Shown: one piece after another, positions 6,584 to 54,691 of the stretch
Layout: the number at the start of each line of letters is the position of its first letter
Position numbering within the stretch: the stretch's first letter is position 1
Assembly: GCA_008632985.1 (NCBI GenBank)
Contig: QPGO01000021.1
Coordinates: 1-64,000 of the forward strand
Reading direction: 5' to 3'
DNA from: Psammoneis japonica
Taxonomy: Eukaryota
Length of the DNA stretch: 64,000 nt
Program-made: the position numbers and the translations under genes
Notes under the pieces: generated by a model
The model's input: the letters and a program-made list of their open reading frames with translations, nothing else
Told to the model about the DNA's origin: nothing
The model's database searches: none

Positions 6584-7321
6584 TCATGCAGCAACCCACG
6601 ATTCGGGTGTCCACATGGGAACTCGCCGACGACGGCAGGCCACAGGAGCATGAATCGATGCCTTGGGGTGAGGTCGTCGCTTCCGTGGAGGTTCCTCTTC
6701 CTCTTCTTGAACGGGTCGTGTGCGTTTCTTTCGAGTCAAAAAGGATGGAGAAACACATCGTTCTTCTGGTACATTCTCCTTTTCGTCCTTGTAGTCGTCA
6801 TCATCATCGTGGAAGTAGTGTTCTTCATGAAGCAACCTTTCCAACGCCGTTGCATCGTCGTCGTAGTCTTGATTCAAATGAGCCGCGTTGTAATCGTTGG
6901 TAGCCGCTTCAAGAGCAACAACAGTGGCCCAAGCATTGGCTTCTTGTGCAATCATGGCGATATACTGAGCGGTGCGTCCGTCTTGTTGGGCCGTCAGCAC
7001 GTCCCGGATCCCAATCGATCGGAGTCGGAGACGCGTGGTCGAGATCCGCCGTTCCAAACCACGTAGACAAAAATCAGGAGAAAGAGACTTGGGATTGCAT
7101 CGGGCTTGAAGAGACATCGCATTGACAGTATCCTTGAACTGACGGTAGTCAGACTTTTGATACCACAATCGTTGACGTTCCTCTGCCGAGAAATCGCAAG
7201 TAGTCCGTGCATCAGGCGCAACGTGGACATTCGCATCAAAGGTCACGCGGCGGCGGTTTCTTGCCTTTTCCGCGTTGCGCTTTCCCATCATTGAAGAAGG
7301 TGTATCTCGAGGACAGCACAT
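6584..7321 (-). CDS. Diatom-type protein of unknown function (RGLE family), paralog 2
   Basis: RRVTFDANV, LWYQKSDYRQF, RGLERRIS and C-terminal WTPESWV. ATG at 7321 (MCCPRD) chosen by alignment with paralog 1. Confidence 0.75.
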   Translation of the reverse strand: MCCPRDTPSSMMGKRNAEKARNRRRVTFDANVHVAPDARTTCDFSAEERQRLWYQKSDYRQFKDTVNAMSLQARCNPKSLSPDFCLRGLERRISTTRLRLRSIGIRDVLTAQQDGRTAQYIAMIAQEANAWATVVALEAATNDYNAAHLNQDYDDDATALERLLHEEHYFHDDDDDYKDEKENVPEERCVSPSFLTRKKRTRPVQEEEEEPPRKRRPHPKASIHAPVACRRRRVPMWTPESWVAA

Positions 7322-7854
7322 GGTGAAGAGGGGCAGTGATACCTTGGCCGTGTTGTAACTCTCTTGCCTCGTTTCAAACGGCTCGTGCCTGTTGGTCTTG
7401 GTGTGATCACTTCTCACGCGAGAGCTTGTGTGTGGCGTCTTTTTTCGATGGCCGGTTTTTGTCGTTTTTTCGATCACCAAGTAGAAATCTACACAAGGTA
7501 CTACTCCTACGTACATTGCACGGCACTGTGTACCGCGGGGAATGACATTTTGTTTCAATTTGATTGGCGCACGCCAGAATGTCCGAGCACCCAGAATGTC
7601 CGAACGTTTTCGAAAACAGGATCGCAAATCGTTTTGCCGTAGAATTCTACGTGCTGAATGGTAACGAACACATCTGTTTCGCGCCATTTTTTAAATAGGG
7701 GTGTCAACCATTCGTCAAATAATAAAGGAAGTCACGATTGTTTAGACATACATCATTATAATAATGATAGATATTTGCATACGTATATCCATAACTTATA
7801 GTACATCAATAATATATGAAATAAATAATGAACCAACTTTATGATAAACATAGT

Positions 7855-10560
7855 GTCGCAGCAGGTTGAAGGTGCTCATGCGCGCGCCAAAAAAGATGAC
7901 CTCACTCGTTCAACACTCGCCAAAAGCTGACAGTTCGCATTTTGCGTTGATCGCACACATTGTGCTGTAACAAGCCGTGGAAGGGCTTGCTGTGCCACAT
8001 TCCCCACCTTGCATGTAAAATGCAAGGTGTTTGCTGCAGGGCCCCATGAGGCTGCACCATTGCTTCTTTGTTTCTTAGTGAAAGAACACTGAAAAAGTTC
8101 TTGAGGAAAGAACACATGAGAGCTTGGTGAGAGACAAGACAAGAGCACTTGAAAAAAGAAAAAAAAAGAACTGCTTTTGGCCCAGATTTGAGACAAATTG
8201 GGTTGCCCCTGCATTGTCAACTTGAGCTGCAGGAGTGCTGGGGTTGTGTGAAGTGCAGTGTGGCAAGCTCCTCCAAAACACACACAAAGTTGCAACAGGA
8301 GCGCGCAAAGTGCTCAAAAATCACGGGAGCCAACCAAAAGCGGTGGTGTTTGAGGTTGATGCAGCAAGAGCAGCAGTGCTGTGAGCCCTCAACCACACAA
8401 GGAGCATGCAGCAGGGGTGTGTGGGGGTCATGTGTCAATGGCTTTTCCAGCAGCACACAGCACGATGCGGCCACACAGCTCACTTTGTGTTGGCAGCTTT
8501 TTTTTCAGCCCGGAAAATGCAGGCGAAATTGTCCCCTCATGCCTTCTCTTGTGATGCTGGAAAAACATCACCTTTGTCAGAGTCAGGGGCAGAGACAGAC
8601 AGGGCTCTGTCACTGCCATCAAAGCATTGGATTGACGCAAATCTTTTCTCCAATGATGTTGATCACAACTTTGTGGACATTTTGGAAAAGCTCTGGATGG
8701 CTGCAGGGAGCTGGGGAACTCTGTGGCCATCACCTCCTTTTCTTGGGAGGCAAGTTTGCCAGCTCTCTCATCTTCTCTCTTTTTCAATGACCACAAGGCC
8801 CTCTTGCCACCAATCATTTGAGCCTTCTTCCTCTTTGCCATTGTGCCAAGACAGCAACAACATGGTGCACAAATTGTGCTTTGACCTGCCTGCATTGTTT
8901 GCGCAATTCTCTGCCTCAGTTTCATGGCCACACAACCCCTGCATGTTTTCTGTCTGAGCTCTGGTGCTGATGTCGCTTTTTCTGATGGTGTGATGATGGC
9001 TCTTGCCTGCCCTTTCCAACTGTGTTTTTTGTCAACATGCCTTCATTCTGTCATCACAAGTGCAATGCACAGCTGCCAACAAGAGCCAATGTATCACGGC
9101 AACGTGTTACAGCCTTTAAATGTCACAAAGGGCGTGACAAAAACAACCTTTTGTCTGCATGCATGCTGCACCATGAATTCACAGCGGAGTGGTTCATCGC
9201 AACCATCAGGCAGGAGGCCAGGGGTTCGAAACCCTGAGTGGGAGTTGTCTGCAGCAACGTTGATCACTGTCGAACGCGCAAAACTCTGTGCAGTTCTGCA
9301 CATTCCTTCGTGCGCACCCACACTGTTCTGCCAAAAACCGTGCAGTGTCAGCGCACGTTAGCAAAGAGCCGCATGGATGCGTGACACATGGGGAGGAGTG
9401 CAACACACAGCTGCTGATGAGAGTCAATGCATCACGGCGACGTGTCACAGCCTTTAAATGTCACAAAGGGCATGACAAAAACAACCTTTTGTCTGCATGC
9501 ACACTGCACAAGCAATCTCATGAATTTGAAAGTGACCAGCACTGACCTCTTTTGGCTCGCATGCTTGTCATTCTTGTCGGCAATTTTTTTCCTCGGATGC
9601 AAAGTTTTCACACAAGTTTCAGCACAAATTCTGCATGTTCTGAGAGTCCATTCTCTGTCCACACCTCTCAAGTGTCAGCGACTCCTCTTCGTCCATCCGT
9701 TGCCAATTTAAGTTCTCTGCTTTGATGTGGCAAACAATCTTCCATCATTGATGCTCCCAGAAGCCTGCATTTGCAATCAACTCAGCATGAGTTTGCCATT
9801 CTTTCATTTTCTGATAATTCCACACAAGTTTTGGTGCAAATTCCATGTGTCTTGAATGCATTTTTGGATGATCAACCCCTGCCGATCTGTCGGCTGTTTT
9901 CTGTTCACGCCTCTCAGGTGTGAACAAGAACTTCCCTCTCACCCACCGCCAATTTGAGTTCTCTGCTTCATGTGGTGAACAATCTTCCATCATTGCCACC
10001 TGCAGAACTTTGAATTCAAGACTGCTTCAGTGTGGATTGACCAGTTTTTCCTGTCCCTTTGTTCTTTCTTTGGTTGCTGCGCCCACACCACATTGCCTCT
10101 CTGTGTCGTCCTTGCAGCCAGATCTTGTCCCAAAAGTGGATGGCCCAATGGCAGCATCAAGTGCTTCAAATTTGATGTCTGGTTTTGTGGGTCCTGTTCT
10201 TGCTTCTGCCAGCCATTCCCGGCAGGCGCCACAGAGTTGTGGCATCATTTTTTGCCAATTGGGGCACTTTCCTGCCCCGAATTTTGTCAGTGTGCTGGGG
10301 GTGTGGGTCAGCTCATTGCCGGAGTTGCAGGGTAGAAGCATGGCAGCACTTTTTATTATAGAATTTTGGTTTTGTTTTGCCTGCATTGTTTGTTTGCCCT
10401 CTGAAGAGTCGCCGTCTTCTGACTCTTTCAAAAAGATTTTAAATGATCCTTTTCTATTGCACGCCACCACGCACATCGCGACGGGAGCCAAACAGACCTG
10501 GCCGTCTGCCGTCTGCATGCCAGCCGCCGCCGAGCTTCGAGCTTCGAGCCGAGCTTTTTG
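7855..10560. other. TpA- and CpG-depleted, TG/CA-rich degenerate repeat block
   Basis: Abrupt switch from TA-rich flank (7740-7850) to near TA-free sequence. Many overlapping Cys/His/Gln-rich, Tyr-poor ORFs and internal duplications. Confidence 0.75.
9061..9509 (+). repeat. About 110-bp direct repeat (9061-9171 and 9399-9509)
   Basis: Shared core cagcctttaaatgtcacaaagggc-r-tgacaaaaacaaccttttgtctgcatgca. Mismatches are almost all TA/CA, CG/CA or TG/CA swaps. Confidence 0.9.
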
Positions 10561-13994: not shown

Positions 13995-15170
13995 TCAGAC
14001 AGTGAATGCCAATGTCGACAGCTTTAAAGCAACTTATTGAATTCTCTCTGAGGCCATGTGCTCCATCCACAGATCCAAGGTTTNNNNNNNNNNNNNNNNN
14101 NNNNNNNNNNNNNNNNNNNNNNNNNNNNNNNNNNNNNNNNNNNNNNNNNNNNNNNNNNNNNNNNNNNNNNNNNNNNNNNNNNNNNNNNNNNNNNNNNNNN
14201 NNNNNNNNNNNNNNNNNNNNNNNNNNNNNNNNNNNNNNNNNNNNNNNNNNNNNNNNNNNNNNNNNNNNNNNNNNNNNNNNNCAGGTGTGTGTGGTGGCAG
14301 AAGCCACACCACCAAACATGCATCAACTCATCTGCGCAAGACTTTGGGAGACAATGAGGCTGTGCTGCAACAAAGAAAAACTGCAGCACCAAAAGAAATG
14401 GGTCTGTTTTCATCATGTCTGTTGTGGTCTCACTTTGTGGCATCCTGTCATGCTTGGTTCATCCCAGCTCTGTGCACCGACTTTGCCGTTCCCAGTTCCC
14501 ACCAGTCTGCCAAGCTGCGCAACTCAGCTTTGTGGCATCAAACCAGGGTCTCTGTTTTGTGAGACAAATTTGGTGCAAGCCAATGCTTTGTTCAGTTCCC
14601 CTCTTGCCAAAACAATGTGCAGTTGTGTTTTGTGGCAATCTTGCTGCCACCGTTTTCTGCCCCACACCTCCATTTTTTGCACCCTGTCTCCACCAAACCA
14701 AAGAGCAGAGCAAGATTGTCTTGGGAAACCATTGAGTCCATCTGCATCCCATGGAATGGCATGCTTCAAATGCAAACCAGTGCCCAATCCAATTTTTTCT
14801 TGCCATGGAAAAGCTCCAGCCCTTTGCATTTGCAAGTGTTTGGGCAGGCGCGATGCATGTCGATCAGTCTGCCACCACAATTCACTTGATGCACTTCCCC
14901 AGATGTGGCACAAACACCACCATGCAGGTGAAAATCCATGGTGCACATGCAATGCACAATTGCCATGCTCCCAGCCATCTTGTCATTGAGGGTCGCTAAG
15001 AAGTGCGCTTCCACAATGCTGCCATCAGCACAGAAGTGGCTGCCGCATGTGGCACCTGATCCGCAGTCACTTGCTTCAACTACTTTTGCAGCATCGACAT
15101 TTCAACAACAGCGTGACCGCACAGCAAAGCTCCCCAAATTGCTTGACAGATGTCCTCAGCTCATTGTTTG
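13995..15170. other. TpA/CpG-depleted degenerate repeat block containing an assembly gap
   Basis: Near absence of TA and CG, TG/CA-rich, spurious ORFs in all frames. Confidence 0.7.
14084..14281. other. Scaffold gap (198 N)
   Basis: Run of n characters. Confidence 1.
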
Positions 15171-17074: not shown

Positions 17075-17764
17075 TTACGGTGATGTGGACACCAACACGG
17101 CTTCGGCATTGGTTGTAGGAGGCGAACACACACGACTGTTCTTCGTCGATGACACTGAGCATGGCATACCACTGTCGTGCAGGGCCTTTCTCTTTAGAAC
17201 TCTTGTCGACGGGTCAATGCTACAGCCTACGTTTGAGATCTTGTCCGCTTTTAGAATGTTGAGGGCCGTGCTGGCATCACGAATCGCCGCGACATATGCG
17301 ACTTGTTTCGATTGAAACGTGCACTTTTGGGCGATCAGAGCCAAGTGTTCGGGACTCGAGCAGCGTTCGTGTGCTTTCAAAATAACTCGTACCGCCAGGC
17401 ACTTGTGCTTGTGCCGATCAGGGCAAATGTAGCGCTCCATTCCTCGAATACAGCCGCCACCATGGCAGCATGATACTCTTTGGTTTAAAATCTTCTCGGG
17501 GTCTTCCAAAAAGAGTCTCTGGCATAAAAGCTTGGCATTATCTTTGAACTCATTCAGCTCGTCATTGGTGTACCAAACCTCTTCCTGTTCTTTCTGCGAC
17601 ATTTCCGGTATGGTTTCAACCTGAGCATCTTCCCGAAACGAGACGCGGCGATTCCGTTTCAATCCCAGTTTCAACGCATCAACGGGAATCACTGCAGACG
17701 TGGAGGGAAGAGCTGTTGCTTTCATGGCTGTGAAAGGCGGAACTTGTTCCTTAATGCAACCCAT
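17075..17764 (-). CDS. Diatom-type protein of unknown function (RGLE family), distant paralog 3
   Basis: RRVSFREDAQV, VWYTNDELNEF, CIRGMERY and EHLALIAQKC match the motifs of paralogs 1 and 2. Start uncertain (ATG at 17764 or 17725). Confidence 0.7.
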   Translation of the reverse strand: MGCIKEQVPPFTAMKATALPSTSAVIPVDALKLGLKRNRRVSFREDAQVETIPEMSQKEQEEVWYTNDELNEFKDNAKLLCQRLFLEDPEKILNQRVSCCHGGGCIRGMERYICPDRHKHKCLAVRVILKAHERCSSPEHLALIAQKCTFQSKQVAYVAAIRDASTALNILKADKISNVGCSIDPSTRVLKRKALHDSGMPCSVSSTKNSRVCSPPTTNAEAVLVSTSP

Positions 17765-18572
17765 GGACTGTAATCGTGTTGACTGTGTGACTTTTTCTAC
17801 CAAGCTTACTTTTCGAGAATGGATCTGTCTTGGATCTGTCTTTTCTCTTGAACAAGACGTGTTGGTTGACTGACTGTGGTTGCGTCGAGCTGTGCGAATG
17901 TTTCAACCAATCTATGGAAGAGAATGGATGTGTGTCTCTTCGAAAAAAGATATCTCTGGTAGAAATGGGAAGACCAAACAAGCTTCACCGACCCGAAGGT
18001 GCTCAGGAAAAAAGAAGTGATGCGATTTCTGACGCGATGCGAAACGCGAGCGTGACTCGAATTCTTCACGTCAGTCTTGCATGCTGACGGTTGAACAGAT
18101 GCCGACGAGCTGGCCACCTCGCCTTGGTGTACTAGACCACGTAGAAATATACAGGAGCATGTTAACGGTAATGACGTAGAAAAACCATGAGATTGTACAT
18201 ACTGAAGTTTCCACGCGTCATTCAGTACTGACAGCTTTTCCGTGATTGGCCGGCTCACGTCTGAAACTGTCTGTCTCATCCGCGTCTGGAAATCTGGAAG
18301 CATTTCGAACACTATCAAGACAAGCGAACCCCTCGATCAAAGGGAGGGACGACTCGACAATGTAGGGGACGACTCCGCCCCTGCTGTACTCTCTACTCTA
18401 GCTAGCCTTTCTTCTATTCACCATCTATTTATATTGCAGCAATTTTCTCCTGCTCTCTTGGCCAAGCAGCAGAGAATACTTTATCTAATTTGAAAATCAT
18501 AGAGAGCAATGCAGTATATTTTTGAAAGCTGTTGAAGATTTATGTCGCGCTGTCTGTGTTCTGGTATTCTGA

Positions 18573-21500
18573 TCAAGTCAGCTCAAATCCTGCTCCCGAT
18601 TCAACGGCATCCAGCAGCTTCTTCCTGAGCAGTTGTTTGTCTTTGTAGTTGGGAAGTTTCAGTAAGTTCATGCACGTGGCACTGGTGGGAAGTGGCGTGA
18701 CCTTGGACAGGGCTTCCATGTCATAATTATGCATTTCAAACAACTCCTCTCCTAAATGCAGTTGCTGTATGCAAGGTAGTGGCTCCAATGCTTTGAATCC
18801 GAGTAGCGGTTGACGTGAACAAGACGTCATGAAGCGAAGGAACTTTCTTTGCTGGTCGGGTGTCATTTCTTCTACAACCTCCCAGAACCATTGAATAATC
18901 GGCTGGGAAGGATGATAGCCGCCAGAGTAGCGCATGACGGCCTTCATGCCGCGGACATCGATACCGCGTACAGTGTCGTCACCTGAAATAAGCTTCTGTA
19001 ACTCGTTGGAAGAAAACAATCGCAGCCACGAAGCAGGGATCAAATCACGGAACCCTTTCAGGAAGGCCTTGGTTTGCGCTGCGCCTTCCACGTTGAGTCG
19101 CTGGTGAGCAACAAGATGTACATACTGAATCACGTTCTGTTTTGTCACGTGCATTGAACTACCGCCAGGGATAAGCTCCGTCGTCGCCGTTTCCCTGCTA
19201 CCATTCGGCCCTGTCGTCGCTTTTGTCAATTCAAATGTCAGACCAAGGCCGTCGATTTCGGAAGCGCTGAGATTCCGCAACTTGATTAGATTGTTGTAGT
19301 ACTCTAAATCAAAGTTCTTCAAATCGTCGAGTGTGTTACGCTTCCCTAATAACTGATTCAAAAAGGGCAAACAGAACTGTGGCTCCACTAAGATGGATTC
19401 GTAAACAGCTTTCCCAAGCACTCGGCCGAGGAACTCATAATGAGACAAATCATAAGACGCAGACGAGTTCACCGAAAGGGTTTGAAGTGGTGTGACGGAG
19501 AAGAGCCGAGGCGCACCTCCAGATGTTCGGTCGGTATTCTCGCCAGGATCGAAGGCTTCCTTGATCAGATCATCCAAGAACTCCTTAAACACCCCACCGC
19601 CATCGATTCCAGCTTCTGTTGCACCATGTTGGTTGATAAAGGTGACTTGCACTTTCCTCCTCAACTTGTTTCCCAGTTCATTCAATTGTTCCATGGAGTC
19701 CTTATACAAGGCATCCCGACGGATTTCGACTCGCTCTCGTCCACCAAAGTTGATATTTTCGTTCTCCTCGTCACCTCTTGCCATCATCATCAAGGCACGA
19801 CGAAACTCGGTTTCTTCGTCTTGAGTTGTAGCCTTGTCGACAGAAAGCAGAGAACTAAACATTTTCACGCGACGTTCAAACGGAAGTGCCTGTGGAATAC
19901 ATGTAAGGATTCGGGCCATTTTAGGGTCACGAAAAATTTCTGCCAAAGCATCACTCTGTGCGTCAGTAGGAGATGGCCCCTCGTCATCCCCGTCGCTCTC
20001 ATCTACATCCATGGACGCAACGCTTCCATCGTCATTATCATCTGGAACACCAGCTTGACGAAGCGTAACTAGCCCGTCTCCTTCACGACTAATGAGACTA
20101 GGGAACCACCAAACCGACTCATCGCAAAAGGTGGGTGCATGACGAACTAGTCGACACCAACGTTCGTACAATGAATTCCAAAGCTTTGTGCCCGACAACA
20201 AGAGTCGCCCACGGTAGAACTTCAATCGATCATCCATATTTTCAAACGCCACACGGTCTACTTGCACATCTGCGGCAAGAACAGGTCGAGTCCAGAAGAC
20301 ATCATAAAGGGCGCTGCCAAGGCGAGCAATGACGTCCTCCGCAAGAATGACTCGCTTTTTGTGTGAGTCGGATGCGGCAGCAGTATAATACAGAAGGAAT
20401 TCTTCGTCGTGAAGCACCAGCAAGTGATGCGCAAAAAAATCACAAAAGACTGCCATACCCGCGGTGATAAGGAGCTGTCTGTCTTCCTCACCAGTCATCC
20501 ACTCGACAAGCGACTGCCACAATCCCTCCAGAATGCGCAACCCACGATGAAATGCAATCTGCGTCAAAAAAGGTGATTTTGATGCCCGTAGTCCGGTGGT
20601 ACACTGCAGCAGAGAAAACAACAACTTGACATAGGTCTCCTTTGCGTCGTAATTGCTGCTGCTGCTATTTCGACCAAAAATAATATCCCCCCACTCGATC
20701 CAAATATCGGCATTCCCCAATTGCGTGGCCAGATTCGCAAGCTGTTCCTTGTTGGATGCGGTTTCCATACTCGATAAGACTTGTTTTCGTGACTTGCAGG
20801 TCACATCTTGATACAAGCGATCCAATTTTGGAACGGTTTGCAAGTCCCGTCGCGTGAGCGTGCTCGAACGGTGTCTGTGACGAGTCTTCTTGGTTTGATC
20901 CGGTTTGGATGCATCTTGCATTTCGACATCCTCCTCTTCTTCCTCTTCATCGTCTTCCTCGGTATCCAAACGATCGTTTTCGTACGGTGACGACGACAAG
21001 GCTGCATTCTTGAGCAAGAGCTCTTGCACGTTTTCTCCTCGCACAACAAGAGACACAAGCGTGGTCAAATCAGGACGCTTGGACAAAACCAAGTCCACCA
21101 AAGACAAGTACATGTTGGGACTCAATTCATCGCGATTACCAGTGTTCCACATGTCAAGAGCATTCTGTAAAACAAGGCTTTCTCGTCCCCGGATTGCCTT
21201 GTGAATCGTTTCCTCGACACGAGGCAGGCTGGTGATTTCTTCAACAGTTCCAGTCAGGGCCTTTACAAGATACGGCAGCAATTCACGTTGATACGCCTCT
21301 AAGCTCTTGTCTTTTGCAGCTGGAAACAAAGCATCTGCCACATTGTCAAGCCCCTCCTTTATACCAAGGCTGGATCTTGCGCAAAACATGGTGCTGGACA
21401 ACAAGGCCATGACGGCCGTCTTGCAGTGATCTGTTCTGTTGAAAGCAGCAGCCGTCTGGCAAGACCAATACCAAAGAGTAGCTGCGGTTGCATCGTCTGC

Positions 21501-22091
21501 ATTTCTAGAATTCGATAGCCATTCTCGACAGCAATTCACGAGAGAAATAAAAGAATCCAATTCTAACTTTCCGTTTGTATTCTGAAGCATGTACACCAAC
21601 AGAGGCAATATGGTTGAAGTGGACGACTTGTTGGGACGCAGTTCTGACAGTGTTGTTTCGAAGATTTTCCTCTGAGAATAGGAAAATAGACCTCCCGTAC
21701 CGCCTTTGCTGTTGTTTTTGCTGCTTTCGTGATTATAATAGTCAGACAACACGGAAGAAACCGCGACTTTCAAATATGGCGAGAGTGGGGTCGATAGTCG
21801 CAGAGAAACCACCGTTTCGGTTATTTCAGAGTTTGCCAGCTGCTCTGCTAGACGCTTTCGTGCTTGTCGACCGCGAAACACACTCTGAATCGTCTTGGCA
21901 GAGGCATTTTGCAATTGAACTTGTCGTCGTTCATTTCGCTGAATTCTCGCTTCTTCCAACACGGATGACTTGTTGCTGTTTGCTGCTGCTGTTGTTGCTG
22001 CTGCTGTGGAAGTTTTTCGTCGTTGACGGCGATGGCGTCCACCTGTACTCAAATCAATGGTACGACGCGATCGATGGCTTCCATCGAACAT
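18573..22091 (-). CDS. HECT E3 ubiquitin ligase, UBE3B/UBE3C-like
   Basis: 1172 aa ORF with N-terminal IQ motif (IQSVFRGRQAR) and HECT motifs EAGIDGGGVFKEF, FLGRVLGKA, LPTSATCMNLLKLP (catalytic Cys) and GAGFELT end. Confidence 0.95.
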   Translation of the reverse strand: MFDGSHRSRRTIDLSTGGRHRRQRRKTSTAAATTAAANSNKSSVLEEARIQRNERRQVQLQNASAKTIQSVFRGRQARKRLAEQLANSEITETVVSLRLSTPLSPYLKVAVSSVLSDYYNHESSKNNSKGGTGGLFSYSQRKIFETTLSELRPNKSSTSTILPLLVYMLQNTNGKLELDSFISLVNCCREWLSNSRNADDATAATLWYWSCQTAAAFNRTDHCKTAVMALLSSTMFCARSSLGIKEGLDNVADALFPAAKDKSLEAYQRELLPYLVKALTGTVEEITSLPRVEETIHKAIRGRESLVLQNALDMWNTGNRDELSPNMYLSLVDLVLSKRPDLTTLVSLVVRGENVQELLLKNAALSSSPYENDRLDTEEDDEEEEEEDVEMQDASKPDQTKKTRHRHRSSTLTRRDLQTVPKLDRLYQDVTCKSRKQVLSSMETASNKEQLANLATQLGNADIWIEWGDIIFGRNSSSSNYDAKETYVKLLFSLLQCTTGLRASKSPFLTQIAFHRGLRILEGLWQSLVEWMTGEEDRQLLITAGMAVFCDFFAHHLLVLHDEEFLLYYTAAASDSHKKRVILAEDVIARLGSALYDVFWTRPVLAADVQVDRVAFENMDDRLKFYRGRLLLSGTKLWNSLYERWCRLVRHAPTFCDESVWWFPSLISREGDGLVTLRQAGVPDDNDDGSVASMDVDESDGDDEGPSPTDAQSDALAEIFRDPKMARILTCIPQALPFERRVKMFSSLLSVDKATTQDEETEFRRALMMMARGDEENENINFGGRERVEIRRDALYKDSMEQLNELGNKLRRKVQVTFINQHGATEAGIDGGGVFKEFLDDLIKEAFDPGENTDRTSGGAPRLFSVTPLQTLSVNSSASYDLSHYEFLGRVLGKAVYESILVEPQFCLPFLNQLLGKRNTLDDLKNFDLEYYNNLIKLRNLSASEIDGLGLTFELTKATTGPNGSRETATTELIPGGSSMHVTKQNVIQYVHLVAHQRLNVEGAAQTKAFLKGFRDLIPASWLRLFSSNELQKLISGDDTVRGIDVRGMKAVMRYSGGYHPSQPIIQWFWEVVEEMTPDQQRKFLRFMTSCSRQPLLGFKALEPLPCIQQLHLGEELFEMHNYDMEALSKVTPLPTSATCMNLLKLPNYKDKQLLRKKLLDAVESGAGFELT

Positions 22092-22389: not shown

Positions 22390-25300
22390 GTTGCTCTCTC
22401 GGTTAGCACCCTGGAGTGCTGGGGCCTGGTGTGTTGTCACTGCTGGCTTGTTTTTCACATGAGGCCCAGGAGGTCAAATTTCTCAGAGAAGCGCTTGTTT
22501 GAGATCTCCTCCCTGTGCATTTGCGCAGACTCAGAGAGTGCCAGATGCCGCTTGTGGACTTTGGCACCATCATTTGTTGTGTTGAGTGTTGGTTGTTTGG
22601 CAACATTTTGTGTTTGGTCACTTTTTGGAGCAGAAGTGGAAAAACTCCCAACACCGAGGGTCCATCACCAAAGGGAGTGCAAATCAGAGCTGTCAGCGGG
22701 GGCAATCAGAGTGGTGGGCACCCACCAAACCAAGAGTGTGGATTTCACTTCTGCTGCAGCCAAAAATTGTTTCTCAAACAGTGCACTCAGCTGCTGTGTG
22801 AGCAAGATTTCCTCAATGACAGTGTGCTTTTCTTGCAAGCACAATGCTGCACTTGTGCACAAAAATCCACCACTGTGCACCCACCCCTCTTTCAAGAGCA
22901 CTTTCATGGCATGCCAAACTTTGCTCCAAATGAAACAAACTGCAAGCATTTGCAGTGCATTTGACAATTGTTGTTGGCATTTTTCTTGCTGCCATCACAT
23001 TGTCAGTTGCTTTTTTGTTGCCAAGTCTCACAGTGGTTTGCCACAAACAATTTGCCCACTGTGCTGTGCACTTTCCACAACAGCTTTCTCCAGCTAGAAA
23101 CTTGCTTTGGGTTTTTCCAGAACCTGCTGGAAGAGCTGCTGGCTTTCTGCACCAACAAATTGGGGGCATTGCTGGTTTCAGTGCTGTGCACATTTGTTTT
23201 TCAACAACCTTCTTGTCACACAGCAAGTGCACAAATGCTGGCAGTTTTGTTGGACTCTGTGTGTGGCAGCTGGGCTGCTCACACAAACAAGTTGGGCAGC
23301 AGAGCAGGGTTGGCTTCAGTGCAAAATTCATTCTTCAACCTAAAACCTCTTTGGTCATGCACATCTTCACAGCAAACTTTGTGAGGCACTGCTGCTTTGA
23401 TGTTTGTTGGTGCATCAATCTTCCCAATGTGTTTGTTGTGCACTCTTGACTGTGAGCCAACTTTTTGTGCACCAAATGTCAATCTCCCAATGTGGTTGTT
23501 GGCAACTCATGTGGCACTTTGATGACCAATTTGCAACAATGTCATTGTTTTGCAACAAGTCAGCCCATGCCTGTTTGCGTGCTGAATTGTGGGACAAATT
23601 TTCCCAACAAGTTTGCTCACTTTCTTGCTGATGATGTCTGTGGCAAGTTGCTCATGCACAAATGCTTTCTCATGACCACTTTTCTGCTTTCTGTCAAACA
23701 GCGCCACTCTGACAAGTGGTTTTGTTCTGCAACTCTCTTGCCAGTGCACTCCTTTTGCTTTTCTCCAACACTTTTGTGTTCAGAAAGGTCCCCAACTTGA
23801 TGATGCTGGATGAGATGTGTTTTGGAAACTGCTGTTTCCACTGATGCAACTTTTGCTGCCAAAGCTGGCATTTTTTCTTTTTTGTTTCTGCGGCCACTTC
23901 CAAATTTCCTGTTTTTGTAAAAGCAAGCCCTTCTTGTTCAGCATGCTCACATGTGCCCTGCTTCCAGCCACAAGCTGCAAAAAGTGGCAGCACCAAAACC
24001 CAAAAGAAAAATCAAAACAACAAACCAGGGGACAAGGAGAGGGTGACAGCATCACTCCCAAATGTTTCATGTGCAAGAGACAGGTGCACAGGTGTGCACC
24101 CAGATGGATCTCTGACTTTCAGATCTGTGCCAAGATCTGCTCACTTGCTCAAGTTTGCTGCTGGCTTGAAAATTCTGTCAAACGCTTCCACCAGTGGGGG
24201 ACTCCTGCAAGAGCAGGTGTTAGACTGTCCCTGTTCTGCCACCAAGCAAGTGGCAAGTCTTTCATGAGAAACACCTGCAAATTCGACCTCCTGTCAGAGC
24301 ACCAATCCAAGCTTGATCCACTGGTCTTACAACTGAGACATTGTTGTGGATCCATGCACACACAAACATTTCTTGTGCAACAGAAGTGCCAGTGGGTTGT
24401 GCTGCTAAAATTTGTAAAATGAGTTCATTGAACATGTGTCGCTTGGTGTCAGAAGCATGGCAGGTGTCTCCTGCTTTCTGCTTTGCAGTCCTGACTCTAG
24501 CCACACTTGAGAAAGCATGTGGGATTGTCAGACAGAAAGGCTCATCTGTTTCTGGCTGGCTGATGATCCACTGCAGGTGAGCTGAGAAAGGCCTGAGCAT
24601 TTGCCACAGGACCATGCAAGGTAAAATCAAGCATGAGAGACAAGGTTGGGGTTGGCCCATCTTTTCATTTGCCAAAATCAATCACATGGACATCCTTGTC
24701 ACACTTTTTAAGCTCTAAAATGGCCTTGGTCATTTGAACAAATGATTGTTTTCACATTTGTCATGTTGCGTCCTCATGTCATTGACACTCATGTGTGAAT
24801 GTGTGTGTGTTCCAGCCAGCTTGGCTGCCATCAAGATGGCTGTCCATGCATTCAATCAATTGCGTGCATTGCTGGAGAAACAAAAAGGCATGACATGTTG
24901 TGTTCTGGGTTCCAGCACAAAGGGATTGTGCACAGAGTGCATTCACACACATGCTCCAGTTCAGCTGCAATCAAGATGGCTGTCCATGCACTCAATCAAG
25001 CAGTGCATCAGAGACAAAAAGGCGATGTGCACCAGGTTCCAGCACAAGGTGATGTGCAAAATGACAATTCTGTCAACTCACTTGTTGACAGCACTTGGGT
25101 GCAATTGTGGTGCAGAACACTGGCACAAAACTGATCAATGCATCATGCAATTTCCAGCCAAGGGGGGCATTTTCTCAAAACAAGAGGCTGGCACTCCAAG
25201 CTCCACAAAGAAACAGCAAATGGTGCTCCCAGCACGACAATGAAAATGACTGGCAGCAGCACTGGTGCCAAATTTTTGTCTTTTGACAATGCAAACAGTG

Positions 25301-26940
25301 CCACTGCAATCACAGCATTTTTCTCAGTGTGCAGGTGCCATTTCTCTTTTTGCTCAGTGCAAAGCAAACAAGCAAACACTTGCAGGCAGCTTTGGCTTCT
25401 CTCAACTTTAAAGTTCTCTTGTCTCACCAGGCCATTTTGGCTTCCTGCTCCAGATGCACCACTCAACTGTGTGAAAATGACACCATAAATCAGCCACACA
25501 CAAATTAGATTGTGTGGCAATTTCTGCATTGCGCAAATCCACCAGGTGACCTCCTCTGTCAACTTTCTTGCTTGGCATGCCAAAGACACCTTGTTTTAAA
25601 CAAAAAACATGGTGCACTTCAATGCTTTGTTGTGCCAGCTTTGTGTTGTTGATTGGCTCCACTTTTGCAATCACAAAGTTGAGCAAAATCATCAAACAGC
25701 TGCACGCCACTACAGAGCAACTTGCCAAAAAAAAAACACACACACCACACACATTGTCTGAGCACGGTCAGTGTGCACAAAAATTCCTCACCCAAATGTT
25801 TGTTTGGCAATGTGCTCAAGTCACAGCCAGGCAGGACTCTGTGTGACATTGGGCCCACAAAATTCCACACGCAAGCTCTGCAGCAAAAAATTGCTGGGCG
25901 AAGAATGTGCAATGATTGCCAACAGAAAAAGAGCCAACTTTTAGATGTCATTTCCAGCTTGCCTGGGCATTTTCAGAATGTCAAAGAAAATGCCCAGAAC
26001 TTTTTGTTCTCACAGACACAAACAACAAAAGCCTCAGTTTTGCAAAAAAGACAGTGCAAAACAATTGCGGAGAAGAACACACACAGAAATGCAATGTTGC
26101 AGGACATCTGCAGCTTGCACATGACAAAAAACTCTTGTGTCATGGCACAGCTGTTTCATGATGTCGACTCAGAACTGGAGCATGTGGCATGCACATTTTC
26201 ATCACTGGCTCAAAAGCACTCTGTGTGTGAGCAAAAAAAAAAAACAGGCCGTTGACAAGCTGATGAGCTTGTTGGATCATGTGATCCCATGTGAGTGGCT
26301 GGTGCTCATGCACACACACAAAAAATTTGTTGGAGTGTGATCTCTCATGGGAGGAGAACAAGAAATGGCCATTGCTCTCAAGATCAACAGCCCTTGTGCC
26401 ATTGAAAAGTGCAGCTCTGGTGGCACAATTTTGTTGCACGATGGAGCAATCACAAATGTGCAAAGACATTGTTTTGCACTCAACAAAGCAATCACAAATT
26501 GGCAGCTGGGAAAGAATCACAGCAATGTCTTCTTTTTTGATGCACGTGCACAAGCATGGTGCTGAAAGACATTCAGCATGTTGGGACAGAGAGCTTGCGT
26601 TGACAAATTGAAGAGAACTGCAGAGCGGCAAGAGCAGCTCAAGACACATTTGCCTTGGTTTGCCACAACATTTGGGGCAGATGATGTCACACACAAAATG
26701 ATCCAGGACATGCACAGGCTGCGTTGGGGAGCAGCGTTGGATTGTGGCTCTTCAAAGCTGTGCAGCACTTGCAAAGCACACACTCACACTGGGAGCACAG
26801 CCACTCAATCTGCACCAAACTTGCAGCAAGCAGTGCTGCAGCAGCGGGCACAATTTGCACCCACAGCTGCAAGAAAAAATGGAGCTGCTCAAAACCAGCC
26901 GCCCTCTTCGACACTTGGCTGCAGCGCTGCTCCTTTCTGA
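22390..26940. other. TpA/CpG-depleted degenerate repeat block
   Basis: About 15-20 TA dinucleotides in about 4.5 kb by manual count, very few CG, sharp boundaries next to the HECT and Hsp70 genes. Confidence 0.8.
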
Positions 26941-27181: not shown

Positions 27182-29470
<2,289 letters not shown>

Positions 29471-30777
29471 TCACACACACAGGGGCCGATCGAGTTGGCC
29501 GGGCGGGCGCGGGCCGTGGGGGTGACGCGGCGCGCTGAAAAATTGTTTGTGATGTTAGTTTGGCAGAGAGTGTTGGGGCACTACTCGACAATGATGCCCC
29601 CAAAAACACAGCTTGGAGCACACATGTGTCCATAAAAGTCTTTCAATCGAGTCAGCTTTCAGTCATTCATCCTGATGCTCACACATGTTTTACAACAAAT
29701 GTCACCTTTGCCAGCTGTGTCTCAACTGCTGCAGCCTCTTGCTTGTGCACTTCCTCCCTCTTTTGGGCACTGCTGTGGCCTCTTGCTTGCGCACTTTCTC
29801 CCTCTTTCTTTTCTCTCCCAGCCAGCACAGGCCTTGGCTTGGTTTTGCCCTGTGGAATTTCCCAAAACTGACCAGGATTGCCACTTCTTGCTGCTGTCTG
29901 CTGTGCTCTTCTGCAGGGAGTGCAAATTGCTGTGGGGGGAATCACCATGAAAGCTGCTTCATCACATTTGTTGTGTGCGCTGTGAGAGAACACAAACGCA
30001 CAAGCTCACGAGCTGGAAACTCCCCCCTTGTTGCCCCCTGCATGATTTGCTGCAACACAGGCTCATGCCAATGACCAGCACATGATGTCATGGCAGCTTC
30101 AAGTGCAACAAATGACACAAATCAGAGTCTGTTCAATTTCATGTCTTTTGCCCCCATGTGTGTTGCTGCGCCACTTTGTGAAAGTCACTCCGCATCACAG
30201 AAACAAGCCAGCTGTTCTTGCACACTTTTTTCTCTTTCTCTTTGGATGTCACAACCCCCCACATGTCCCTTCTCCCTTCTTCTCTCCCACCTCTTGATGC
30301 AGCCATGTGTGTGGCTTCTGAGCATGTGTTGCCATGCTTTGAATGTCGCTCCACATTGCAAAAACAAGCAAGCTGCTGTTGTGTGCAACTTTTTTCTCAT
30401 TTTTTTTGGATGCCACACCACAAACCCCTCACATGTCTGCTCACCTCCCTCATCTCAATGTGGCCACATGTGGGCAGGCCTGTTCCAGCCCCAGGTGATG
30501 AGAAATCCATCGCGCAAGAGGCCGATTTTCTGTGCAGTTTGGCACATTTTAAACTCCTTCAAATTTGGGCTGATTGTTTCAAAAATCAAAAGGTGAGTGC
30601 ACAAAAAAATGAGTTTTGAGTTTTGTGTTCACTCACCCTTTCAATTTGGGAAAAACCCAATTTTGAAGGAGTTTGATGCTCTAAATGCAAAAATGGCCAG
30701 TGATGGGAATCAAACCTGTCCACGGCTGCTGCCAAAGCTGGCAAGAGAGAACAAGGAAGAAAGCCTCTAAAGACTCC

Positions 30778-32416
30778 CAAGAAGGCAAAAGGAGAAAAAG
30801 CAGCCTCCACATTGAAAAAAAAGAAGCCTTCTCTTTGTGCTCAAATTGCCAGCTTTTTGGTGGCAACGTTGCTCAGCTCATGGCTGTGAACAAAAGAAGA
30901 GCAAGGCCCAATTTTTGGGGCACCTGAGAGCAAGGACATGAGAACTGGGTTGCTGGTGGGTCAAGATTTTCAACTTTTAGTTGTTGCCATGAGAGTCAGT
31001 TTTAACAATGATGAAGATCTGAAGGAAAGTGGCTTGCCTGTCAGGAGTTGTCCAACCACAATGGATGAAAACACCACAACATCACACCCTCAACTTCATC
31101 AGCTCTTTGAGAGAGTTGCAGAGACAACAAACAAACACATCACAAAGACAAAAAGCACAGCAAGATGGAGCATGTTGTCAAGGGCAGCAATGACGAAGCA
31201 CACAACATTGTTGTCTCTCTTGGCTGGTTGCACCAGACCATTGTTTGTGGGTTGCAAGTGCCGCTGCCAAGTTGACCAGAGATTTGCACAAAAAAGATGA
31301 CATGCTGGCCAGACATTTTGTGATGCTTGCATGGGTGCCACCCTCAAGCCTTGGTTTCTTGCAGGTGATGTGCACCCAACCAAAGCCCAAGAATGCTGTG
31401 AGCATTCTTCTCTTTAAGGTGGATGAGTGCAGCGCTGTTGGTTGCTGTGCCACTGAACACTTCATCTTGAGGTGCGTGCACAACAAAGGACATGTCAGAC
31501 AGACCATGATGGCCCATTTGTGATGAAAATGGAGTCTTGCCAATCTTTTTCTAAAACTGCATGCAGTCTCTCACGCAAAGCACATGCACACAAATGCTGT
31601 GACAGCCTGCCCCCAAGGACATTGCTGTCTTTTTGGTGATGATGGTGAGTGCAGCATGCACAAAGTTTCCAGCACAAAATAATTCAGGAAGTCAAATCAT
31701 CTTGCCATCCATCAGCTTGTGCGCAAAGACAACAATGCGTCCAATCATGATGGAGTGCCATGCTTTCTGTTTTGGTTTTGTTTTGGCTGAGACTGCCAAG
31801 AAGGCAAAAGGAGGAATGGCAGCCTCCACACTGGAAAAAAAAGAAGCACTCTTTGTGCTCAATCACTGGCACTTTGGTGGACAATGTCACTCAGCATGTG
31901 GCTGTGAACAACAGGAGAGCAAGGCCCATTTTTTGGGGTGCCTGAGCAAGGGCATGAGGAGCAGATTGGTGGTGGGTCAAGGTTTTCAACTTTCAGTTGT
32001 TGCCACAACAGTCAGTTTTGACAATGACACACGAAGATCTGAAGGAAAGTGGCTTGCCTGTCAGGATTTGTCTCCAACCACAATGGATGAAAACACCACA
32101 GCATCAAATCCTCAACTTTGTTTGCTCATTGAGATTTGCAGAGATGACAAACAAACATGCAACAAAGACAACAAGCACAAGATGGAGCATGTTGTCAATG
32201 ACAGCAGCAATGGCGGAGCATGCAACATTGCTGGCTCTCTTGGCCTGTTGTGCCAGACCATTTGTGGGCTGCAAGTGCCACACCAGAGAGGCACATGATG
32301 AAGATGACATGCTGATCAGACATTTTGTGACCCCAATGACTTGTGTGGACATGCCACCATCACGCCTTGGGCTTCTTGCAGGTGGCGTGCACCCCAGTGC
32401 AAGCAAAGCCCAAGAA
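30778..32416 (+). repeat. About 0.6-kb diverged direct duplication (30778-31393 and 31797-32416)
   Basis: Shared blocks gaaggcaaaagga, gaagatctgaaggaaagtggcttgcctgtcagga, caatggatgaaaacaccaca and caaagcccaagaa. Confidence 0.9.
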
Positions 32417-33427
32417 CACCATGGGATGTGCCGTGCATGTTTGGCTCTCAGGTGGTTTCCACATGAAAAGTGCACCAGGCGATCTCCGGAAATTGTTCAC
32501 ACATGCTGCTCCAGTGGAGACCAGGACATTAAAAAAAATGGGTGACAGCGCGCCGCGTGCGCAAAAAATTGAAAAAAGACAGTTGCGAGGAAGTGAGGAA
32601 GTGAGTTGACAACGTCATCAGAGACAACAAGATCAAAACAACTCCTGCATTGTGAGTGTAAAGAAGCAGCAACAAACACTGAACATTCACATTGCAGGCT
32701 TGTGCATGAAACCAGCCTGGAACCCAAAGGTGAGCCACACGTCACATCATGCTTGTTCCACGTCAGCGCTCGAGTTGACCTTGATGCCACACTTCACGCA
32801 TCCAGACAGCTTCAAGACACATGATGCATGTTCATTGCCAGACATTTCTGCTGCCACTGATGACAATTGGACCACTTTGAATGTTTTGAACTTCCCTTCA
32901 TTCCAAGAAAATGTGGGTGCACAAAGTGTTGCTGGGATGACTCCTGGAGAGACCCATCAACATTCCTCCTGCCAAGGCCAATCTCAGGAAATGAAGTCCT
33001 GCCATGCGGTGTGGCAATGTCTTTATGAGGAGTTGTTTCTGTGCTGGATTACAATGTTTGTGATAAAAGCACTGCACAAGTTGTTGATTTTCCATCTGAT
33101 CTGAGGCGGAGCAGCACGCAGGCATGCCCAAACCATCCTCTTGGTGACAGGACAAGGTGCTCCTTGACAAAACAGATCATGGCATCTACAACATGTTGTG
33201 TGTTTGTTGCTTGTTTGCACTCCATTGTCAAAATGCCGTCAGTTGGCCAGCATGGGTGTCATGGCTTTCTTTTGCATCCATTCGGGTTGGGGCCCTGTTG
33301 CGGCGCACCTTTGTCCTCTGATGCAGGTCATCACTTGGCATCAGCATGCCGGCAGAACACCAAGCACAAAGAATTGCTGGAAGATTTCCAGCAAGTTTGA
33401 GACCCACCACTTTCATCCTCGAAAATG

Positions 33428-33635
33428 CACTTGCCAACAAGGCAAAATCTGTTGAATCAACCATCTGGCAGCAACCAAGTCACACTCTCAAGTTCAAGTT
33501 GCTGAACACTCTCTCTAGCGAGGTCACCAAACACTTGCCGACAAGGCAAAATCTGTTGAATCAACCATCTGGCAGCAACCAAGTCATGCTCTCAAGTTCA
33601 AGTTGCTGAATGCTCTCTCTGGCGAGGTCACCGAA
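33428..33635 (+). repeat. Tandem repeat, 2 x 104 bp
   Basis: acaaggcaaaatctgttgaatcaaccatctggcagcaaccaagtca occurs twice at 104-bp spacing. Confidence 0.9.
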
Positions 33636-33849
33636 TGTGACTCAGTTTGCCGTGTGAAGACAGGGTGCCGCAGAGCTCAACATCATCAGACAGTTCGACA
33701 CCCTGCTTTTGCGCGAGTGGCCATTGGACTCCAAAAGTGCCAACACATGCTGCATGCCACTGGACTCCAAAAGTGCTGCCACACTCAGAGAGAGTGAATC
33801 ACTCTTCACAGCGACTGGGTCATTGATGCAGGCACACGTGGCTGCACCA

Positions 33850-34740
33850 AAAGTGGCACTGGCCAATGTTAAAAGCGCAAGTCCCACAATGATCTGGTGC
33901 CACAATTTTGTTTTGGAACCAACAGTCAACAATGGTGACCCCCCTCCACATCAAACATCAAACCTTGTGACCACCGCTCCATCAAAGGTGTTGGTGCTCT
34001 GCAGTTTTGAACATGTGATGGATGGAACGTGACCGCCACGGAGAGAGTGATTGGCGACAACAGTGCACAAAAAGAGGTGCAATCAAAAAGAGCCAACATC
34101 AATCACCAGGTGTCCAAACGGCAAAAACAGGTTTCTGCATTGGCCAAATCTGATGGAACACACCCGACGCAGTTGCAAGTTGGTCCAACCACAATCCATG
34201 CATGGCTTTTTAGAAGACCAAGCCACCTGCACCAAAAGGGCCCACCTCCCAGATGAGGGGCTGCAATGATCCAGAATCTAAGTTCAATGGCACAGACAGG
34301 AAGCATCCTGATGGGAAGTGTTCTCAAGACTTGATGCAACCACAGTCCCAGCAGTGTCGATGCATGCTTTTGCAAAAACCACGCTCGCTTCCGACTCTCA
34401 CAGTCAGAACCGACATTGGGGTCCTGCCAAGCAAACGCACCACGAGGAATCCTGAAATGAAGAGAAAGGTGTTGACTGCAAACCTTTGCGAAAATAGCAG
34501 TGTCCCACCAAACATGGAGTCTCTCCACCATGCACCATCGCTCTGTGTGCCGCAATGCCACAAAACAGTGTGCACAAGGCACAAGTCATCAAACGACATT
34601 CGATTCTTCTCGAGAAGGTGACACACAGGTGATCGGCAGCCTCATGCCCATGGCGAATGAAATGGGGGTCTGATGTGCCATACAGCGACAATGCAGGACA
34701 CCGGGATGAGACGGATGCAACAAACTGAGGGCCATCGCGA
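33850..34740 (-). pseudogene. Acyltransferase-3 (NRF-6/OafA-like) pseudogene
   Basis: Fragments in several frames: LLFSQRFAVNTFLFISGFLVV, HQVLR..LPVC..FWIIAAPHLGGGPFWCRW and ETCFC..TW match AT3 motifs (FAVDTF..ISGFL; R.LR..P.Y; GP.W; C...WYL). Confidence 0.7.
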
Positions 34741-50500: not shown

Positions 50501-51118
50501 CAACAGTGCGCAGCAAGCTCCAAATCTTGATTGTCGCATGACAGCAAGATGGAAATTTTCTAGATTGCATTCATCAACTCTGCTGGAGACAAGAGCACAC
50601 CCACCCAAACCACGTTCATCCAGAATTGCCGCAATCCACTCGTTTTTTATTCCCCTCTCCTGAGCCCTTTCAGTTTTTCCTTTTTGCAAAAAATTGCCCT
50701 CATTTCCTGGGCATTTCCCAAAAGGGTTGAGGCAACTCCCCCCCTGCCCTTGCCATTTTGGGGAATCCCCAAATGGGTGAAACCAAACTGAGCTCTTCTG
50801 CTGATGATGCACCCCGCCTCCAATCTTTGTTTGCACTTCCTGAGAGTTTTTGCAAGAGCGCTTTTGCCGTTGTCGCCTGAACAGAAATTCTCTCCTGGTG
50901 CCTCTGGACACCACTGCCTGAGCTGACCTCTTCCTTTGTGAGGACCTCAATGCTGCTCAGCATGCCGTGGCACATTGCATTGCGTCACTGACTCACAAGC
51001 CTCCACTGGCAACAAATGCCCGCTGGCTGCAGGAGAACGAATGAGAAGGGCGTTGCGCACACAGCAGTGCACGCATTCTCAATGTTGTGTTCGCAGCCGG
51101 CCCCCGTGCGTTGAATGA
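42780..51118. other. Long TpA/CpG-depleted degenerate repeat block
   Basis: About 8 kb with very few TA or CG and dense spurious Cys/His/Gln-rich ORFs. Confidence 0.75.
48578..49586 (+). mobile_element. Heavily decayed relic of the same tyrosine-recombinase retrotransposon family
   Basis: 48578-48780 resembles repeat A (aaatttga..gagcaa..cttcc-r-aagagcaac). 49140-49586 encodes CHDAAGHG.GGV, NP.GP..N.ELE and NSGAMCWQQKGAT..KP.S.LL, homologous to the RNase H at about 53010-53460. Confidence 0.8.
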
Positions 51119-54664: not shown

Positions 54665-54691
54665 TCACCACAGCCCTCCAGCCTCAACCCA

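Follow-up and report, generated by a model that had tools for sequence, protein, structure and literature searches.

Flank-dependent loss of TpA steps from eroded insertions in a genomic window of the diatom Psammoneis japonica

In a contig of the diatom Psammoneis japonica (GenBank assembly GCA_008632985.1, contig QPGO01000021.1), of which positions 1 to 64,000 were analyzed (hereafter the 64-kb window), the segment at positions 22390-26940 lies between two genes and has been almost emptied of the dinucleotide TA. This locus raises the question of which process removes TA so thoroughly and why the few TA steps that remain stand in so narrow a range of flanking bases. A preliminary description of the segment, made from its letters, had proposed that TA is lost faster in some contexts than in others. 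Here, we show that a TA-specific transition process has acted on both strands, is confined to insertions, and depends on the bases flanking the step. The segment is probably an old mobile insertion that has been run down by this flank-dependent TpA hypermutation, for which R-T-A-Y (R, purine; Y, pyrimidine) is the hot context, together with CpG decay.

Results

Composition of the eroded blocks

Sliding dinucleotide counts and a two-state hidden Markov model (HMM) divided the window into normal and eroded DNA. The normal DNA has a TA observed/expected ratio (o/e) of ~0.5 and a CG o/e of ~1, values that the genes flanking the blocks retain, whereas the eroded DNA forms six sharp-edged blocks, 20.2 kb in total or about one third of the window, with a TA o/e of 0.03-0.07, a CG o/e of 0.13-0.33, and a CA/TG o/e of ~1.9. 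Within positions 22390-26940, the ratios are 0.05 for TA, 0.14 for CG, 1.95 for CA, 1.88 for TG, and 1.33 for AA. The blocks and the two genes beside the main one are as follows:

7977-9091, eroded block with 2 TA and 11 CG
9456-10319, eroded block, a repeat-family copy (purine/pyrimidine-coded match to 43183-43976)
14036-14993, eroded block with 0 TA and 8 CG, adjoining a gap of 198 N
18573-22091, minus strand, HECT ubiquitin ligase gene, the untouched left neighbor of the main block, with 104 TA, 34 of them RTAY
22405-26899, main eroded block, bounded by the HECT gene (its 5' end) and the Hsp70 gene (its 3' end), with 17 TA (o/e 0.05) and 30 CG (o/e 0.13)
27182-29000, minus strand, DnaK-type Hsp70 gene in two overlapping frames, the untouched right neighbor of the main block
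29587-34357, eroded block containing the diverged duplicate 30771-31393 / 31790-32416
42801-50965, largest eroded block, containing old pieces of the retroelement family of a young element that lies beside it

Over the 20122 eroded bases, an excess of 2147 TG and CA stands against a deficit of 2243 TA and CG. When erosion of the normal DNA of the window was simulated, loss of both TA and CG gave a CA/TG o/e of 1.86, equal to the observed value, in comparison with 1.60 for CG alone and 1.45 for TA alone; CG decay alone would leave the TA o/e at 0.46. Because a value of 1.86 was reached only with both steps eroded, TA loss is needed to explain the blocks. They carry the footprint of hypermutation from TpA to TpG or CpA, with ordinary CpG decay as a second process. 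A single pass of erosion over normal DNA fails to give the observed o/e of GC (1.36) or AT (0.81). Strand-coordinated bursts would make TG and CA cluster along a block, but runs tests gave z values of -2.3 to +2.6 with no consistent clustering.

Flanks of the remaining TA

The preliminary description had estimated about 17 TA in the segment, about 11 of them YTAR, about 6 mixed, and none RTAY, and our recount agrees. The HMM-defined block 22405-26899 contains 17 TA (11 YTAR, 4 RTAR, 2 YTAY, and 0 RTAY), and the wider interval 22390-26940 contains 18, comprising 12 YTAR, 4 RTAR (ATAA once and GTAA three times), 2 YTAY (one CTAC and one TTAC), and 0 RTAY. Measured against a first-order Markov expectation (YTAR 33%, RTAY 18%), the main block by itself departs only moderately (P(YTAR >= 11/17) = 0.007; P(RTAY = 0) = 0.03). 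The five other eroded blocks hold 64 TA, which divide into 41 YTAR, 8 RTAR, 14 YTAY, and 1 RTAY (P = 3e-7 for the YTAR excess and 4e-5 for the RTAY deficit). With the six blocks pooled, 81 TA fall into the classes YTAR, RTAR, YTAY, and RTAY as 52, 12, 16, and 1, respectively, versus 26.5, 19.4, 20.2, and 14.8 expected (chi2 = 41, p = 6e-9). The non-eroded DNA of the window, by contrast, has more RTAY than any other class (424 of 1448 TA). The depletion of NTAN words is therefore context-dependent once composition is controlled, and the uniform depletion that would have refuted the preliminary description is not seen.

When both strands are combined as half-sites, the base after a surviving TA is A at 1.63 times expectation, G at 1.14, C at 0.66, and T at 0.20. 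The values for the main block and the other blocks, respectively, are 1.42 and 1.70 for TAA, 1.38 and 1.08 for TAG, 0.66 and 0.66 for TAC, and 0.16 and 0.21 for TAT. The base beyond is biased as well: in the six blocks, A stands at +2 in 101 of 162 half-sites, where 58.6 would be expected, and the two sides of a TA behave independently (0, 1, and 2 sides with A in 9, 43, and 29 cases, respectively). The words concerned are TAAA (56), TAGA (27), and TACA (18), and TA-N-A occurs on at least one strand at all 17 TA of the main block (for example, at 23341, 23918, 24406, 24415, 24622, and 24716). The measured loss preference does not account for this excess of A at +2. The 30 TA of the young element and the 21 TA of region 1-2500 are too few for a comparison of flanks, which coding also confounds.

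Direction of change in related copies

To see the direction of change, we used a metagenome cluster of a related retroelement (copies L005, L006, L007, and L009, together with L042) whose members are 98.6-99% identical. The differences for L005-L009 comprise 20 of TA versus TG/CA, 6 at CG, 5 CA/TG swaps, and 7 other transitions, and the CG o/e of all five copies is still 1.0. Since TA-related differences dominate, TA was taken as ancestral, and a strict filter required four identical bases on each side. Majority-rule polarizing of four copies yielded only 8 events, and the per-site analysis was used instead.

Under the strict filter, A changed to G, counted per strand, at 26 of 112 R-TA-Y, 8 of 110 Y-TA-Y, 2 of 110 R-TA-R, and 1 of 84 Y-TA-R targets. 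Thus, 34 of the 37 changes are at TAY (34/222 TAY versus 3/194 TAR targets; odds ratio 11.5, p = 2e-7). Sorted by the base after A, the rates are 24/135 for C, 10/87 for T, 2/121 for G, and 1/73 for A; sorted by the base before T, they are 18/135 for G, 10/87 for A, 5/73 for T, and 4/121 for C. A loose filter gave 33/134 for R-TA-Y, 15/145 for Y-TA-Y, 11/145 for R-TA-R, and 5/102 for Y-TA-R, and logistic regression on these counts returned two independent effects, one of 3.35-fold (p = 1e-4) and the other, for a purine 5' of T, of 2.46-fold (p = 0.0015). In eight control pairs drawn from other clusters, the 30 events among 1924 targets showed no bias, and eight other clusters of the element family had no excess of TA versus TG/CA differences. 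The polarized copies therefore indicate that the loss itself is flank-dependent, with both flanks acting on each strand, and that the same hypermutation acts in at least one uncultured host.

These data refine the proposal of the preliminary description that the target on each strand is TAY, the equivalent of RTA on the other strand. Faster loss of TAY than of TAR is supported both by a model fit to the survivor table and by the TAY share of the metagenome changes. The equivalence itself is incomplete, since a purine 5' of T raises the rate on the same strand (compare R-TA-Y with Y-TA-Y above). The two data sets differ in the hottest 3' base: survivors of the window are lowest for TAT, whereas the metagenome copies mutate most at TAC.

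We then carried the metagenome rates over to the window, starting from the context frequencies of normal DNA and fitting a single parameter, the exposure. The observed survivors, as YTAR, mixed, and RTAY, are 52/28/1 (26.5/39.6/14.8 expected). The hazard ratios of the loose filter (1:2.9:8.3) predict 55/25.9/0.1 (G = 3.2), and the raw rates of the same filter give 41/40/0.2 (G = 8.0). A model that lacks any flank effect gives 15/42/24 (G = 101).

A young retroelement and the mobile origin of the blocks

Beside the largest block lies a retroelement that has entered the window recently. Its parts are as follows:

51119-55230, plus strand, young retroelement with split direct repeats in the order A1 ... 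B1-A2-B2
51119-51316, repeat A1
51355-53778, open reading frame (ORF) of 807 amino acids
54735-54874, repeat B1
54874-55071, repeat A2
55091-55230, repeat B2

The ORF has 54 database relatives, several with a reverse-transcriptase domain. In a contig of a public sequencing run (run X1) with single-copy depth (55), position 51118 is joined directly to 55230, and this empty site indicates that the insertion of the split-repeat element is polymorphic and recent. Over 51119-55230, the depths of run X1 contigs sum to ~10-30 times that of single-copy sequence. The element already has a TA o/e of ~0.2 while its CG o/e is still 0.8-0.9, which indicates that TA loss and CG decay are separable processes. 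TA o/e ranges from 0.38 to 0.90 in 67 metagenome relatives, none of which is close enough at the DNA level to serve as the ancestor of the element in the window. The repeats, presumably alike when the element inserted, now differ at 5 of 9 TA and 5 of 21 CG sites, in comparison with 2 of 276 positions elsewhere. Of eight alignment columns with a conserved Tyr, the young element keeps none (2 Cys, 2 His, 3 Val, and 1 Phe), but these columns are too few for a conclusion and the N-terminal half is doubtfully aligned.

Older pieces of the same family are present in the largest block, where 49107-49586 resembles ORF residues 541-701 (49% amino acid identity) and 48578-48897 resembles A1. The eroded blocks derive from mobile elements that inserted long ago, and the genes between which they lie are intact. 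A Pfam scan of 150 of the 155 stop-free frames of at least 75 amino acids from the blocks returned only two sub-threshold chance hits, and none of the 35 such frames of the main block had a Pfam match. The main block (TG/CA ~1.9) is unique sequence, for which no match was found.

Recoding to purine/pyrimidine is blind to transitions and exposes homology between eroded tracts that ordinary comparison misses. One such case is the opposite-strand match of 9528-10351 and 43183-43976, which scores 120 against a shuffled maximum of 54. Duplicates within the eroded blocks contain 13, 2, 4, 1, 2, and 1 aligned double differences of CA versus TG, the 13 being in the pair 30771-31393 / 31790-32416 over 598 aligned bases. 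These double differences arise by independent decay of an ancestral TA or CG in the two copies, and the change occurred in place, after duplication or insertion. A shorter repeat pair is:

9059-9178 / 9397-9516, plus strand, with 4 CA/TG swaps, 1 shared TTTAAA, and 2 unshared TA

The preliminary description had noted that TTTAAA and CTAG persist in both copies of repeats. TTTAAA is indeed common to this pair, and three CTAG and one TTAG are common to B1 and B2. The words are not immune, as one CTAG and one TTAA differ between A1 and A2, and 7 of 8 TA sites in the older duplicates are not common to both copies.

Contigs of run X1 also cover 43191-50774 (~7 kb of eroded DNA) with 29 differing letters, in comparison with 1 difference in ~5 kb of two normal flanks and 9 in 2.5 kb of a third, which contains a Patched-like gene. 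Among the differences listed for the eroded block, 25 events include 8 of CG versus TG/CA, 5 of TA versus TG/CA, and 4 CA/TG swaps, the remainder being 6 other transitions and 2-3 transversions. Run X1 therefore represents a different haplotype or strain, whose copy of the tract has continued to change. The Patched/NPC1-like gene itself (55586-58098) has 9 differing letters and 4 gaps relative to run X1, a density like that in the eroded block.

Old and young copies were also compared at CG (49107-49586/52975-53457, 48578-48897/51120-51442, and 44112-44442/42300-42625). By hand count, CG of the less eroded copy is CA at 28 and TG at 16 sites of the eroded copy, and CCG became CCA 12 times and CTG 4 times. 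This skew may reflect a strand or flank effect in CpG decay.

Weighing loss against other explanations

The survivor table was fitted with models of loss and of creation. The ten-class NTAN table agrees with flank effects that are independent and multiply (deviance 6.1-9.7, 6 degrees of freedom (df)), whereas an additive four-parameter model, in which new TA arise at N-CA, is rejected (deviance 21.6, 6 df, p = 0.0014). The misfit lies mainly in ATAA (7 versus 15.6) and ATAG (0 versus 5.1), words containing ATA being rare even with a favorable other flank. Of 25 CA/TG swaps, 12 have R..Y flanks, against a background of 26% (p = 0.015; three further swaps, two of them with flanks that differ and one messy, were dropped), and surviving CG, in contrast with TA, prefers RCGY. 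The product ratio (RCAR+YTGY)/(RTGR+YCAY) is 2.01 in the main block (366/182), 1.55 in all blocks, and 1.14 in normal DNA. Simulations with a loss bias and with a creation bias both give low AT, high GC, and product asymmetry, and these features therefore do not discriminate between the two. Low AT, high GC, and the RCAR/RTGR asymmetry were accordingly withdrawn as support for a loss bias.

Several observations weigh against flank-dependent loss as the source of the survivor pattern. In principle, equilibrium counts of survivors fix only the ratio of creation to loss in each context and do not separate faster loss from slower creation. Within the window, the direction of change at RTAR and YTAY sites follows the rule 5 times and contradicts it 6 times (hand tally, with two unequal-flank sites dropped), 12 of the 16 pairs of TA versus TG/CA involve a TAR/YTA half-site, and the rejection of the additive model depends on 81 TA. 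The metagenome copies come from an uncultured host, and TA was assumed to be ancestral wherever any copy has it. Their strict hazard ratios (1:3.9:22) predict survivors of 63/17.5/0, too high for YTAR (52 observed) and too low for the mixed class (28 observed). Moreover, the A excess at +2 has no matching protection among these copies, where 11 of 78 targets with A at +2 and 26 of 338 without it were mutated.

A bias in creation would turn this argument around: TA would be lost without regard to context, and most survivors would be new, formed by C-to-T change at YCA (TGR to TAR on the other strand), which yields YTAR from either strand and RTAY from neither. In any equilibrium statistic, this looks the same as a loss bias; its simulation gives YTAR shares of 0.49-0.70, RTAY of 0.05-0.10, AT of 0.62-0.76, and GC of 1.28-1.52, the half-site tally of 12 in 16 is what it would favor, and a rough hand estimate of the flux places the balance of creation and loss at ~1.6 TA/kb, of the same order as the 4/kb observed. 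We nevertheless regard it as unlikely, given the rejection of the additive fit and the flank-dependent loss in the polarized metagenome data. Ordinary C/T differences, furthermore, are rarer after pyrimidines (23/406) than after purines (42/325), the opposite of what creation bias requires, and a product asymmetry of 2.7-7.3 would be needed to reach the observed share of YTAR, well above the 1.55 found.

Protection or selection, by which words such as TTAA, CTAG, or TA-N-A would be kept through binding or function (for example, as processing signals), would draw on the two-fold enrichment of A at +2, which acts independently on both sides, extends to every TA of the main block, and is not explained by the measured loss preference. 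It seems improbable, since the frames scanned in the blocks contain no recognizable genes, the pattern is strand-symmetric and the same across six unrelated blocks, and all but one of the eight surviving TA in duplicates are not common to both copies. An artefact, in which modified bases of silenced DNA are misread as TG/CA during sequencing or polishing, would suit the very sharp block edges and the joint effect on TA and CG; it is hardly credible, because the independent public run X1 reproduces ~7.5 kb of the eroded sequence with 29 differences, which also speaks against an error of assembly, because TG and CA outcomes are independent at the same sites of duplicates, and because unrelated metagenome assemblies carry the same signature. 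Flank-dependent loss of TpA stays the preferred explanation.

Discussion

The closest known case is that of Bigelowiella natans, in which TpA-restricted hypermutation of an integrated giant virus and virophage has been described (Mettrop et al., bioRxiv 10.64898/2026.01.13.699255). According to the main text of that preprint, accumulation lines yielded 302 new mutations, of which 231 changed A/T to G/C at a TpA of the giant virus or virophage, the de novo changes being almost exclusively A>G / T>C at TpA and ~1000x above background, and the genome contains 124 clusters that are poor in TpA, rich in CpA+TpG, and enriched for genes of reverse transcriptase and transposase (10.64898/2026.01.13.699255). 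The main text proposes an ADAT2-like deaminase with no enzyme identified, gives no flank analysis, and leaves CpG unmentioned (10.64898/2026.01.13.699255).

As far as the main text of the preprint describes it, the Bigelowiella process resembles the one inferred here in changing TpA to TpG/CpA on both strands, in affecting only foreign or mobile DNA while sparing neighboring genes, and in its long-term footprint. Both the loss of TpA with a matching gain of TpG and CpA (2147 against 2243) and the confinement to mobile DNA between intact genes were found in the window. The two cases differ in that the host here is a diatom rather than a chlorarachniophyte and that the footprint is seen, not de novo mutations. 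Erosion is far deeper here, with a TA o/e of 0.05 versus the 0.45 given in the preprint for the insert of a nucleocytoplasmic large DNA virus (NCLDV), and takes up about one third of the window; CG is eroded too (o/e 0.13-0.33), which we read as a separate second process. In our literature search, hypermutation that erases TpA was found described only in the Bigelowiella preprint, and nothing was found for diatoms. The kind of process is already known from Bigelowiella; new is the flank fingerprint, in which R-T-A-Y is the hot word and Y-T-A-R the cold one.

In ascomycete fungi, repeat-induced point mutation (RIP) changes C to T at CpA (or CpG) and leaves DNA that is rich in TpA and poor in CpA. 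It is likewise a heritable and sharply bounded decay of mobile or repeated DNA that spares genes and prefers a dinucleotide. The outcome here is the opposite (TA 0.05, CA/TG 1.9), and most of the eroded DNA is now single copy. Fungal RIP is excluded by direction, as TA is destroyed and CA/TG is made. CpG methylation is known from diatom transposons, and decay driven by it would resemble the blocks in their low CG o/e and in the CG versus TG/CA differences between copies. It would account only for the CG half of the footprint, and the young element lost TA before CG.

Among deaminases, ADAR favors G after the edited A, and APOBEC changes C rather than A. Their editing of retroelements is similar to the present case in being deaminase-driven and in producing clustered transitions in mobile elements, whereas here TAG is cold and the decay took place after insertion rather than during reverse transcription. 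ADAR-type editing was rejected, as TAG is among the coldest contexts in the metagenome copies (2/121) and is over-represented among survivors (1.14). A polymerase eta signature at WA (W, A or T), that is, A-to-G at TA and AA, was likewise rejected: the preliminary description had argued against a general signature of this kind, and AA/TT is not depleted (o/e 1.25-1.33; AG 1.0).

The natural target of TadA is U-A-C. TadA and ADAT2, deaminases with an HxE/PCxxC site, convert A to I, which is read as G, and are sensitive to the 5' base; U-A-C would also resemble T-A-C, the hottest context of the metagenome copies. In the text of the study on DNA editing by amphioxus BjADAT2, the preferred contexts are GAA for adenine and TCG for cytosine, and evolved TadA editors are described as broadly context-tolerant for A (PMC10354150). 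The R-T-A-Y preference seen here differs from the GAA given there for BjADAT2, and TAT is at least as depleted as TAC in the window. The sole pointer to a putative TadA/ADAT link would be the rank of T-A-C in the metagenome data.

Taken together, the observations are probably explained by an A:T-to-G:C change specific to TpA, in which TA to TG on one strand is TA to CA on the other. The A of T-A is changed ~10x more often with a pyrimidine 3' of it and ~3x more again with a purine before T. Because both strands are hit, the hazard of whole sites follows the order RTAY >> RTAR/YTAY > YTAR, roughly 8-22 : 3-4 : 1. Loss compounds exponentially: once ~60% of YTAR has been removed, ~93% of the mixed class has been lost and virtually no RTAY is left, which is the survivor pattern that is seen. 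Adenine deamination in DNA to hypoxanthine, the chemistry also proposed for Bigelowiella, would be the simplest fit. The genes of the 64-kb window include no deaminase.

Since both flanks act on both strands, the pattern might point to a reader of duplex DNA or to a TA step that is easily opened in alternating purine-pyrimidine sequence, rather than to a TadA-like reader of single-stranded loops. We speculate that the near-palindrome R-T-A-Y may point to a duplex-reading enzyme or to weak TA stacking in alternating purine-pyrimidine runs. It is possible, and we put it forward tentatively, that diatoms defend their genomes by a heritable editing of A:T to G:C, specific to the nearly palindromic R-T-A-Y in silenced mobile DNA. 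If so, the enzyme that modifies adenine (or thymine) in DNA would be of a new kind, either shared with chlorarachniophytes or convergent on theirs, and a candidate natural base editor. Apart from this, a deep footprint in a diatom extends the range of TpA hypermutation to a major group of ocean phytoplankton. The flank preference (~10-fold for the 3' base and ~3-fold for the base before T) is a criterion that any candidate deaminase must reproduce, provides a sharper detector of the process in other genomes, and explains why the tracts are rich in TGC/GCA and poor in AT steps.

Other features of the window

The top named relatives of the Hsp70 gene product are all from diatoms, with 86-91% identity. 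The window is eukaryotic, has few introns, and carries further genes that include those for a glycosyltransferase, the Patched/NPC1-like protein, and a kinesin. The interval 42668-43334, on the border of the largest block, has a summed contig depth of ~2057 in run X1, in comparison with 56-60 for single-copy sequence, as for a high-copy repeat. Within region 1-2500, an intact FG-GAP-repeat ORF of 661 amino acids (498-2483, minus strand) has a TA o/e of 0.1-0.2, normal CG, and only 3 tyrosines; either the same TA loss has reached its first stage in this gene, or the gene has an unusual composition. Three ORFs free of Pfam matches (4519-5298, 6584-7687, and 17075-17803, all on the minus strand) are mutual paralogues with 29-33% identity and form a small local gene family.

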